Shown here in pieces: positions 30,395 through 30,826 of a DNA stretch of 46,219 nucleotides. Location: sequence record NC_007603.1; one strand, written 5' to 3'. Below the pieces are notes generated by a model. The model was given only the letters and a program-made list of their open reading frames with translations. It ran no database searches and was not told the DNA's origin. The position numbers and the translations under genes were made by a program. The stretch is from Escherichia phage Rtp. Numbering within the stretch: the stretch's first letter is position 1; each line of letters opens with the position of its first letter.

Positions 30395-30826
30395 ATGCAC
30401 GTAATTACTGGTCAGATTCGCCGCGCCCCATTCACCAAAGAAGGTCAAAACGCAAATGGTAACTGGAAAATGTTTGCGGTTGATTTAAGCGAACGATACA
30501 AGGATAAGGATGGGCAATCACAATATACGAATTACAGAGCCGTCTTCTTCGCTAAAGAGTCAATGTTAGATTGGTACAACGAGGCGTTCAAGGAGGGTAA
30601 AGTTGTTAGCGTGAGCGCTGAAAGCCTGGCTGTTGATGTTCGTGATAAAGATGGTAAGACCTACGTAACGATCAATATGAACAACCCTCGACTTGAGTTT
30701 AGTCAGCGTGGTGATTCACAACCTCAGCAAAATAATAGACAGCAGCAACAACAGCAGCAGCAGCAGCAGCAACAAAGACAACAACCTCAGCAACAGCAGC
30801 AGTTTGATTCTGATATCCCGTTCTAA
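30395..30826 (+). CDS. single-stranded DNA-binding protein
   Basis: 143 aa; acidic C-terminal tail ending DSDIPF preceded by a Gln-rich linker. Confidence 0.6.
   Translation: MHVITGQIRRAPFTKEGQNANGNWKMFAVDLSERYKDKDGQSQYTNYRAVFFAKESMLDWYNEAFKEGKVVSVSAESLAVDVRDKDGKTYVTINMNNPRLEFSQRGDSQPQQNNRQQQQQQQQQQQQRQQPQQQQQFDSDIPF
30736..30803 (+). repeat. CAG/CAA (poly-Gln) tract within the SSB gene
   Basis: About 22 consecutive CAG/CAA-dominated codons. Confidence 0.8.

Follow-up and report, generated by a model that had tools for sequence, protein, structure and literature searches.

What does a long glutamine tract do just ahead of the C-terminus of a small phage protein? The 143-residue product of the ssb gene of Escherichia phage Rtp (NC_007603.1) poses this question: a sequence-only reading of the window, by which we mean the whole 46,219-nt stretch that was analyzed, had singled out a CAG/CAA tract in this open reading frame, immediately before a DSDIPF tail. 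The tract is present, and 23 of the 35 residues that precede the tail are glutamines. From sequence comparison, structure prediction and analogy with characterized proteins, we consider it very likely that the phage, an Rtp-like coliphage (Drexlerviridae, Braunvirinae), encodes an SSB of the bacterial type and that the tract is its disordered linker, which would tether a host-like tip.

The protein is laid out in three parts (Table 1): a core which begins MHVITGQIRR and ends NPRLEF, the linker SQRGDSQPQQNNRQQQQQQQQQQQQRQQPQQQQQF, and the tip DSDIPF. The linker comprises 23 Q, 3 R, 2 P, 2 N, 2 S, 1 G, 1 D and 1 F, i.e. it is 66% Q, or 71% Q and N combined. Its Q-dense part covers residues 109-136 (30719-30802) and has 22 Q among 28 residues. 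The earlier description of a run of about 20 glutamines is thus right in number but not in form, as P, NNR, R and P interrupt the series. Likewise, the interval originally assigned to the tract (30727-30810) falls in roughly the correct place, but is out of frame and slightly short at the 5′ side: it opens at the third base of codon 111 and closes within codon 139. The longest uninterrupted run, of 12 glutamines, is encoded by a mixture of the two codons (CAG2 CAA2 CAG6 CAA2), as is the linker as a whole, with 14 CAG and 9 CAA, and TRF detects a period-3 array at 30740-30771. The stretch of six CAG codons is the longest pure triplet repeat of the tract and the sole plausible slippage substrate within the ssb gene. 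An open reading frame in the +3 frame (30693-30869, 58 aa), which is Ser/Asn-rich since the CAG repeats are there read as AGC, overlaps both the tract and the downstream terminator; we rejected it as a gene, since it results mechanically from the repeats.

Such a concentration of glutamine is far above random chance. Across those ORFs of the window that span 150 aa or more, 3.7% of the encoded residues are glutamine, and at that frequency about 6e-14 runs of 12 glutamines would be expected in the window, with a probability of about 5e-25 for 23 or more glutamines in 35 residues. A search of the window's proteins for other homopolymer runs of more than 5 residues found none.

Table 1 Features of the Rtp ssb gene and its surroundings (positions in the window).
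Feature	Position	Strand	Details and basis
PD-(D/E)XK-like exonuclease (DUF3799)	28662-29627	+	First gene of the module; Pfam PF12684, E 2.8e-21
Erf-family single-strand annealing protein	29701-30351	+	Upstream neighbor of ssb; Pfam PF04404, E 5e-27
Shine-Dalgarno-like AGAGAGA	30382-30388	+	Purine-rich, 6 nt before the ATG; sequence, conserved in relatives
ssb open reading frame	30395-30826	+	143 aa, ends ...SQRGDSQPQQNNRQQQQQQQQQQQQRQQPQQQQQFDSDIPF; ORF list, PHROG 44, hhalign, annotation of relatives
Predicted OB-fold ssDNA-binding core	30395-30700	+	Residues 1-102; AF2, Foldseek, length constancy
Disordered linker	30701-30805	+	Residues 103-137; fall in AF2 pLDDT, composition, hypervariability among homologs
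Run of 12 glutamines	30740-30775	+	Residues 116-127; codons
Pure (CAG)6	30752-30769	+	Triplet repeat
Predicted SSB-Ct-like docking motif DSDIPF	30806-30823	+	C-terminal tip, preceded by F137; sequence, homologs, alignment with E. coli SSB
GC-rich hairpin with T-run, terminator	30831-30856		Between the convergent ssb and tail-fiber genes; conserved in relatives

The designation of the protein as an SSB, which the sequence-only reading had also proposed, is supported by PHROG 44, profile searches, hhalign, the AF2 fold, Foldseek and the position of the gene. PHROG 44 (“single strand DNA binding protein”) matches across residues 1-143 with an E-value of 2.2e-31. Pfam PF00436 was not reported for the 143-aa protein at E-values up to 1, and TIGR00621 returned 23.3 bits, below its cut-off of 53.95. 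We therefore regard the protein as a divergent, phage-type SSB: sequence profiles and the predicted structure support its membership in the bacterial SSB superfamily, outside the curated thresholds. When 1.84 billion representatives were scanned exhaustively with HMMER, the core alone serving as query, only 76 relatives were found, and most of these end in a DDDIPF-type tip. Matches from a single-sequence PDB search (prunin, Mediator) were discarded as low-complexity noise and a family profile was used instead. This 54-member profile matches Klebsiella SSB (1e-10), E. coli SSB (6.5e-6) and, over the OB domain alone, yeast Rim1 (2e-6), and hhalign of the profile against E. coli SSB gives a probability of 98.6% (E 7.5e-16). 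The hhalign alignment pairs Y35, Y47 and F52 with W40, W54 and F60, which are ssDNA-stacking positions of E. coli SSB, and the fourth stacking aromatic, W88, with the non-aromatic V81; within the family Y47 is invariant and F52 nearly so.

The AF2 model shows a confident OB fold at residues 1-105, a β-barrel with one helix. The pLDDT is 94-98 over residues 1-100 (mean above 94) and exceeds 90 for 103 residues; after residue 106 and through to residue 143 it is about 46-60, with no secondary structure. All of the best 50 Foldseek matches in the PDB are SSB or PriB, with E-values down to 3e-5 and modest TM-scores of 0.3-0.58. The protein thus combines an SSB/PriB-type OB core, a disordered low-complexity linker and the acidic -DIPF C-terminus of bacterial-type SSBs. 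We infer ssDNA binding by Rtp SSB, as well as its oligomeric state and its partners.

We considered whether the protein could be PriB-like, or another small OB-fold protein, and its DIPF-like ending incidental. The missing Pfam SSB match, the sub-threshold TIGR00621 score, the PriB structures among the Foldseek matches and the label “hypothetical protein” which several relatives attach to the orthologous gene could all be read in this way. Against this reading stand the full-length PHROG 44 match, the hhalign result with three aromatic positions retained, the presence of all three parts of the layout (an OB core, a disordered linker and an FDxDIPF tip) and the placement of the gene within an exonuclease-Erf recombination module. 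To our knowledge, PriB proteins have no such tail, and we regard this reading as extremely unlikely.

The exonuclease, erf and ssb genes form an operon which ends in a terminator, and this arrangement is kept in 15 related phages. The nearest record is that of Escherichia phage vB_EcoS-IME253 (Rtpvirus, Braunvirinae, Drexlerviridae), which is 97% identical over the region and whose ortholog of the exonuclease is annotated “exonuclease VIII”. The ssb ortholog is annotated as an SSB in several relatives and as “hypothetical protein” in others, and the Rtp protein itself (YP_398993.1) carries the label “putative SSB”. In phages CEB_EC3a and AHS24 the terminator ortholog is annotated on both strands. 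On the far side of this terminator lies a convergent 970-aa gene (30856-33768, minus strand) for a lateral tail fiber or tailspike. Its orthologs differ greatly in length (annotated coding sequences between about 1.2 and 2.9 kb), and the gene forms a host-range cassette beginning immediately behind the shared terminator.

A second GC-rich hairpin, GGGGC-TGCG-GCCCC (30358-30373), lies in the 43 nt that separate erf from ssb and has no T-run on the plus strand. This hairpin is kept in most relatives, with TTCG, CTCG or TACG loops, and has a longer stem in Klebsiella phage HazelMika (GGGGGC-GAAA-GCCCCC). A consensus scan rates it only as a weak minus-strand terminator, and it may be an mRNA-stabilizing or processing element. 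Database records assigned to “Campylobacter phage A110b” and “Pseudomonas phage PsgS01F” contain an Rtp-like module at 81-87% identity, and an Enterococcus phage shows a short 80-nt match; these odd-host records are probably coliphage contaminants or have mis-assigned hosts.

We wondered how far the linker varies among related phages, as the sequence-only reading had suspected that the tract may differ in length. The homolog set consisted of 120 database sequences with at least 80% identity, enlarged with further sequences from three clusters at 90% identity. In 120 of 121 homologs the core comprises 102 aa, and in the remaining one 103 aa, whereas total protein length ranges over 137-146 aa in the 120 database homologs, and over 129-146 aa once the members of the three added clusters are included. 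The suspicion was correct at this level: over 152 distinct homologs, the linker measures 21-38 aa on this constant core (median 34, standard deviation 2.8). It mostly has 1-3 Gly and usually 1-4 Pro. The longest glutamine run per homolog is between 3 and 12 residues, with Rtp at the maximum of the 152; IME253, known to us from its DNA and outside this set, exceeds it with a run of 14. The majority residue has a mean frequency of 0.96 in the core versus 0.75 in the linker. There are 45 pairs in which identical cores carry tails belonging to separate 90%-identity clusters, a count inflated by the collapse of the database at 90% identity or above. A PxxP motif occurs in 9 of the 152 homologs and was not found in the Rtp linker, so we rejected partner binding through PxxP in this protein. 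When related loci were searched with the full protein, matches to QQQQQQQQ dominated the result; repeated with the core only, the search gave 11 loci, mostly in phages that had already been found. The exact Rtp SSB protein was not found in a collection of 15 billion sequences.

At the DNA level, the claim that the tract is prone to slippage gains indirect support from tandem duplications of 6, 12, 15 and 18 nt in the tracts of relatives. Exact duplications with a period of 15 occur in IME253, of 12 in DTL, of 18 in vB_EcoS-12397V and of 6 in several others, and such duplications are, judged from the sequences, direct footprints of slippage or duplication. The sole indel between the ssb genes of Rtp and IME253 is a 9-nt one inside the tract, accompanied by register shifts of CAG and CAA blocks. 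In a comparison of 16 related ssb genes, Rtp has the longest pure triplet run with its (CAG)6, and most relatives have four units or fewer. The ssb genes of Rtp and IME253 differ by 22 substitutions, 17 of them in the core; nearly all of these 17 fall in 30482-30535 (approximately nt 88-140 of ssb, residues 30-47) and the remaining core is almost identical. To judge by this distribution, the patch looks like a small recombination mosaic.

Could the linker then be neutral filler, Q-rich as a by-product of CAG/CAA slippage and unselected in composition and length, so that a disordered stretch of whatever sequence and length would do? It shows no positional conservation, identical cores bear widely different tails, tandem duplications are present in the tails of relatives, and in bacteria neither the length nor the composition of the SSB IDL is conserved (PMC7584906). 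However, the Q fraction stays within 0.43-0.67 and the net charge within 0 to +4 in all 152 homologs, despite the differences in residue order, and length varies with the small standard deviation given above. Q-richness also spans subfamilies: it is kept in Rogunavirinae, where nucleotide identity is about 66%, and in family representatives that fall below 50% identity. Two segments, SQRG[DE] and R-Q-(Q)-P-Q-Q-Q-x-Q-F, recur among the linkers. Finally, CAG accounts for 61% of the Q codons of the tract versus 67% genome-wide, and this near-genomic mixture, together with the persistence of Q-richness in distant relatives, suggests that glutamine is kept at the protein level. The Q content thus appears, from these comparisons, to be maintained by long-standing selection and not to stem from one recent expansion. 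Neutral filler is therefore a somewhat unlikely account, though one with a real chance of being right, and we favor a linker whose composition is under selection.

In the one comparison at the level of isolates, the expected variation in tract length was not seen: for one related phage, no fewer than 36 near-identical re-isolates of 44,219 bp all give the same match span and score (these records are flagged UNVERIFIED, and their tract has no long pure run). Variation is thus shown between phage lineages, and not as rapid instability between isolates. An exact-flank scan of viral contigs for tract-length alleles found Rtp itself and IME253 alone, and the same scan of metagenome contigs found 3 contigs, in all of which the pattern span is 12 nt shorter than that of Rtp.

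These observations also bear on the idea that the triplet repeat is a contingency locus, a hypermutable switch that diversifies tail length rapidly and within populations, for instance in evading SSB-sensing defenses. The tails are hypervariable relative to the cores, and phage SSBs are known triggers of Retron-Eco8, Hachiman and other systems (bioRxiv 10.1101/2022.08.27.505566, among others). However, the pure repeat has six units at most, and usually four or fewer in relatives, the re-isolates are uniform, and the repeat cannot switch expression because its 3-nt unit keeps the frame. Furthermore, the Retron-Eco8 triggers that have been studied are SSBs of the T7 gp2.5 type, another family (bioRxiv 10.1101/2022.08.27.505566), and we treat a link to this or other SSB-sensing defenses as speculative context only. 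A contingency locus is very unlikely, and lineage-level change of a selected linker remains the preferred reading.

The protein terminates FDSDIPF followed by the stop codon, and residues 137-143 align to the C-terminus of E. coli SSB, DFDDDIPF. The earlier identification of DSDIPF as an acidic tail was correct: IPF is present in all 152 homologs and F at position -7 in 148 of them, with D, N, E, S or G at the three tip positions ahead of IPF.

A group of 11 related SSBs has DDIPF at an internal position, followed by a conserved 16-aa extension, A-x-x-G-L-Q-Y-G-x-x-x-I-Y-x-L, as in FEDDIPF-APIGLQYGMSNIYVL and FNDDIPF-ASLGLQYGKHRIYAL. It includes phiEB49 gp26 (601-1062 of its locus), ACG-M12 (301-762 of its locus), ECH1 and SCS31. 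GLQYG and I-Y-x-L are conserved among these proteins, which share only 58-98% identity. As SSB-Ct docking depends centrally on the terminal Phe with its free carboxylate, the extension would mask or repurpose the tip. In ACG-M12, a small hypothetical gene lies downstream of ssb in place of the convergent tail fiber. Three further family members, representatives from the core scan, have no DIPF and share the ending W-V-x-x-I...Y-[RK]-A-x-I-x-x-L-L, which suggests, at the level of sequence, that the same OB core carries a different C-terminal module for binding partners in these proteins.

Together with work on other SSBs, these features point to the following function. Rtp SSB would coat the ssDNA of intermediates in phage replication and recombination; those of recombination would arise through the neighboring exonuclease and be annealed by the Erf protein encoded next to ssb. 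As a flexible, nearly uncharged tether, the linker would present the tip, and the tip would dock on host SSB-interacting proteins, at the pockets in which these recognize the C-terminus of E. coli SSB, and/or on the phage's own recombination and replication proteins, among which may be Erf. The amide-rich linker may also aid tail-tail cohesion and cooperative binding. Selection would act on composition, low charge and approximate length, leaving residue order free, and length would change between lineages as CAG/CAA-based units slip in frame or are duplicated in tandem.

In the E. coli protein, at least 17 partners are recruited by the C-terminal tip (PMC10018359). Across bacteria the disorder of the SSB IDL is conserved, unlike its length and composition, and in E. 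coli both cooperative binding and condensation require the IDL (PMC7584906; bioRxiv 10.1101/2022.01.17.476650). The preprint among these (bioRxiv 10.1101/2022.01.17.476650), citing Shinn et al. 2019, states that the IDL has no role in the binding of at least four E. coli SSB partners, which argues against linker length tuning recruitment. The same study proposes that IDL-IDL cohesion and the phase separation of E. coli SSB are driven mainly by Gly, through its backbone amides, and found that the N/Q-rich tail of P. falciparum SSB, which is highly acidic, supports neither (bioRxiv 10.1101/2022.01.17.476650). Transfer of a cohesion role to the Rtp linker is uncertain because that linker has 1 Gly versus the 17 of the E. 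coli SSB IDL.

These considerations also apply to the more far-reaching possibility that the polyQ linker is a condensate-forming or prion-like module, which drives phase separation or self-templating aggregation and makes of the SSB a phage-specific hub. The 71% of Q and N in the linker speaks for the idea. By the classical criterion, a prion-like segment has at least 30 Q/N in 80 residues, and the best 80-residue window of the Rtp protein narrowly misses this with 29, the linker being just 35 aa long. Its run of 12 glutamines is well under known polyQ aggregation lengths, and in relatives linkers as short as 21 aa, and Q runs of 3-5, are sufficient for function. In support of the idea, E. 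coli SSB condensates need the IDL, for which prion-like scores have been reported (PMC7584906), and a segment of Campylobacter hominis SSB acts as a prion domain in E. coli (PMC11175392; PMC7584906). Yet Gly, proposed to dominate E. coli SSB condensation, is nearly absent from the Rtp linker, and the PfSSB tail does not phase separate despite being N/Q-rich, though it is highly acidic as well. We consider such a module improbable.

A variant of this idea is that the nearly pure-Q, Gly-poor linker endows the phage SSB with material properties of its own, so that it might form cohesive assemblies or condensates immiscible with the Gly-rich host SSB, with the host-mimicking tip still capturing host SSB-interacting proteins. 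The phage would thereby have a private hub for replication and recombination, with tail turnover under selection. If true, the fast turnover of tails on identical cores would be tuning to hosts, or evasion of SSB-sensing defenses, and not drift, but we rate this proposal, too, as decidedly improbable. A flexible tether for the tip remains the reading that we prefer.

Part of this picture is already known: relatives of the protein are annotated as SSBs and the variability of their linkers is no novelty, as variable low-complexity SSB linkers are textbook knowledge and well documented. What is added is a catalog of natural linker variants, together with the near-pure polyQ, Gly-poor flavor of the linker in Rtp-like phages. 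In addition, the gene labeled “hypothetical protein” in many relatives can be named as the probable SSB of an exonuclease-Erf-SSB module, with a host-mimicking docking tip. The 152 natural linkers (21-38 aa, 43-67% Q) on a near-invariant core could serve as a ready-made panel of variants for relating SSB linker length and composition to cooperativity, condensation and partner recruitment, and for Erf-plus-SSB recombineering pairs. Beyond correct annotation the importance is small, and a major question is neither opened nor settled.

Comparison with E. coli SSB (P0AGE0; PDB codes 1EYG and 1EQQ) shows the same three-part layout and a homologous core, which is shorter in Rtp (102 aa versus about 112 aa). 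The tips differ by the replacement of one acidic residue with Ser in Rtp (FDDDIPF versus FDSDIPF). Both linkers are of low complexity and nearly uncharged, with Q and P in the E. coli protein as well, but they differ in length (35 aa in Rtp, about 57 aa in E. coli) and in make-up: the E. coli linker has 17 Gly and 11 Q, in contrast to the 66% Q and single Gly of the Rtp linker. The SSB of Klebsiella phage vB_KaeD_HazelMika (489-956 of its locus), a more distant relative, has a Gly/Asn/Pro/Gln linker with the sequence GWGQPQQP, which is also found in the E. coli SSB IDL and in several family representatives. This suggests, from the shared sequence, that tail segments have been exchanged between host and phage ssb genes. 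The C. hominis SSB prion domain and the E. coli SSB condensates resemble Rtp in having a Q/N-rich disordered tail; the Rtp linker is much shorter and Gly-poor, and its aggregation is hypothetical.

Closer at hand are the orthologs of Rtp-like and T1-like Drexlerviridae, such as IME253 gp69, CEB_EC3a gp41, JeanPiccard bas02_0033 and Rogue1_0045. They occupy the same place in the exonuclease-Erf-ssb module, convergent with the tail-fiber gene, and show 80-96% identity in the core. Each of them combines a Q-rich linker with an xxxIPF tip, and linker length and order differ in every lineage. The best functional precedent for an ssb gene that adjoins erf is the SSB of phage HK620, likewise a distant SSB homolog encoded beside an annealing gene (Hutinet et al. 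2018, PMC5928155). Loading and stimulation of the annealase, Sak4, depend on the six C-terminal residues of this SSB (NDYPPF, cf. DDDIPF; PMC5928155). The HK620 pair differs from that of Rtp in that Sak4 has a RecA-like core, as opposed to the Erf of Rtp, and in that its SSB is larger (21.3 kDa) and has another tail; by analogy, the tip of Rtp SSB may nevertheless act on the neighboring Erf in a similar manner.
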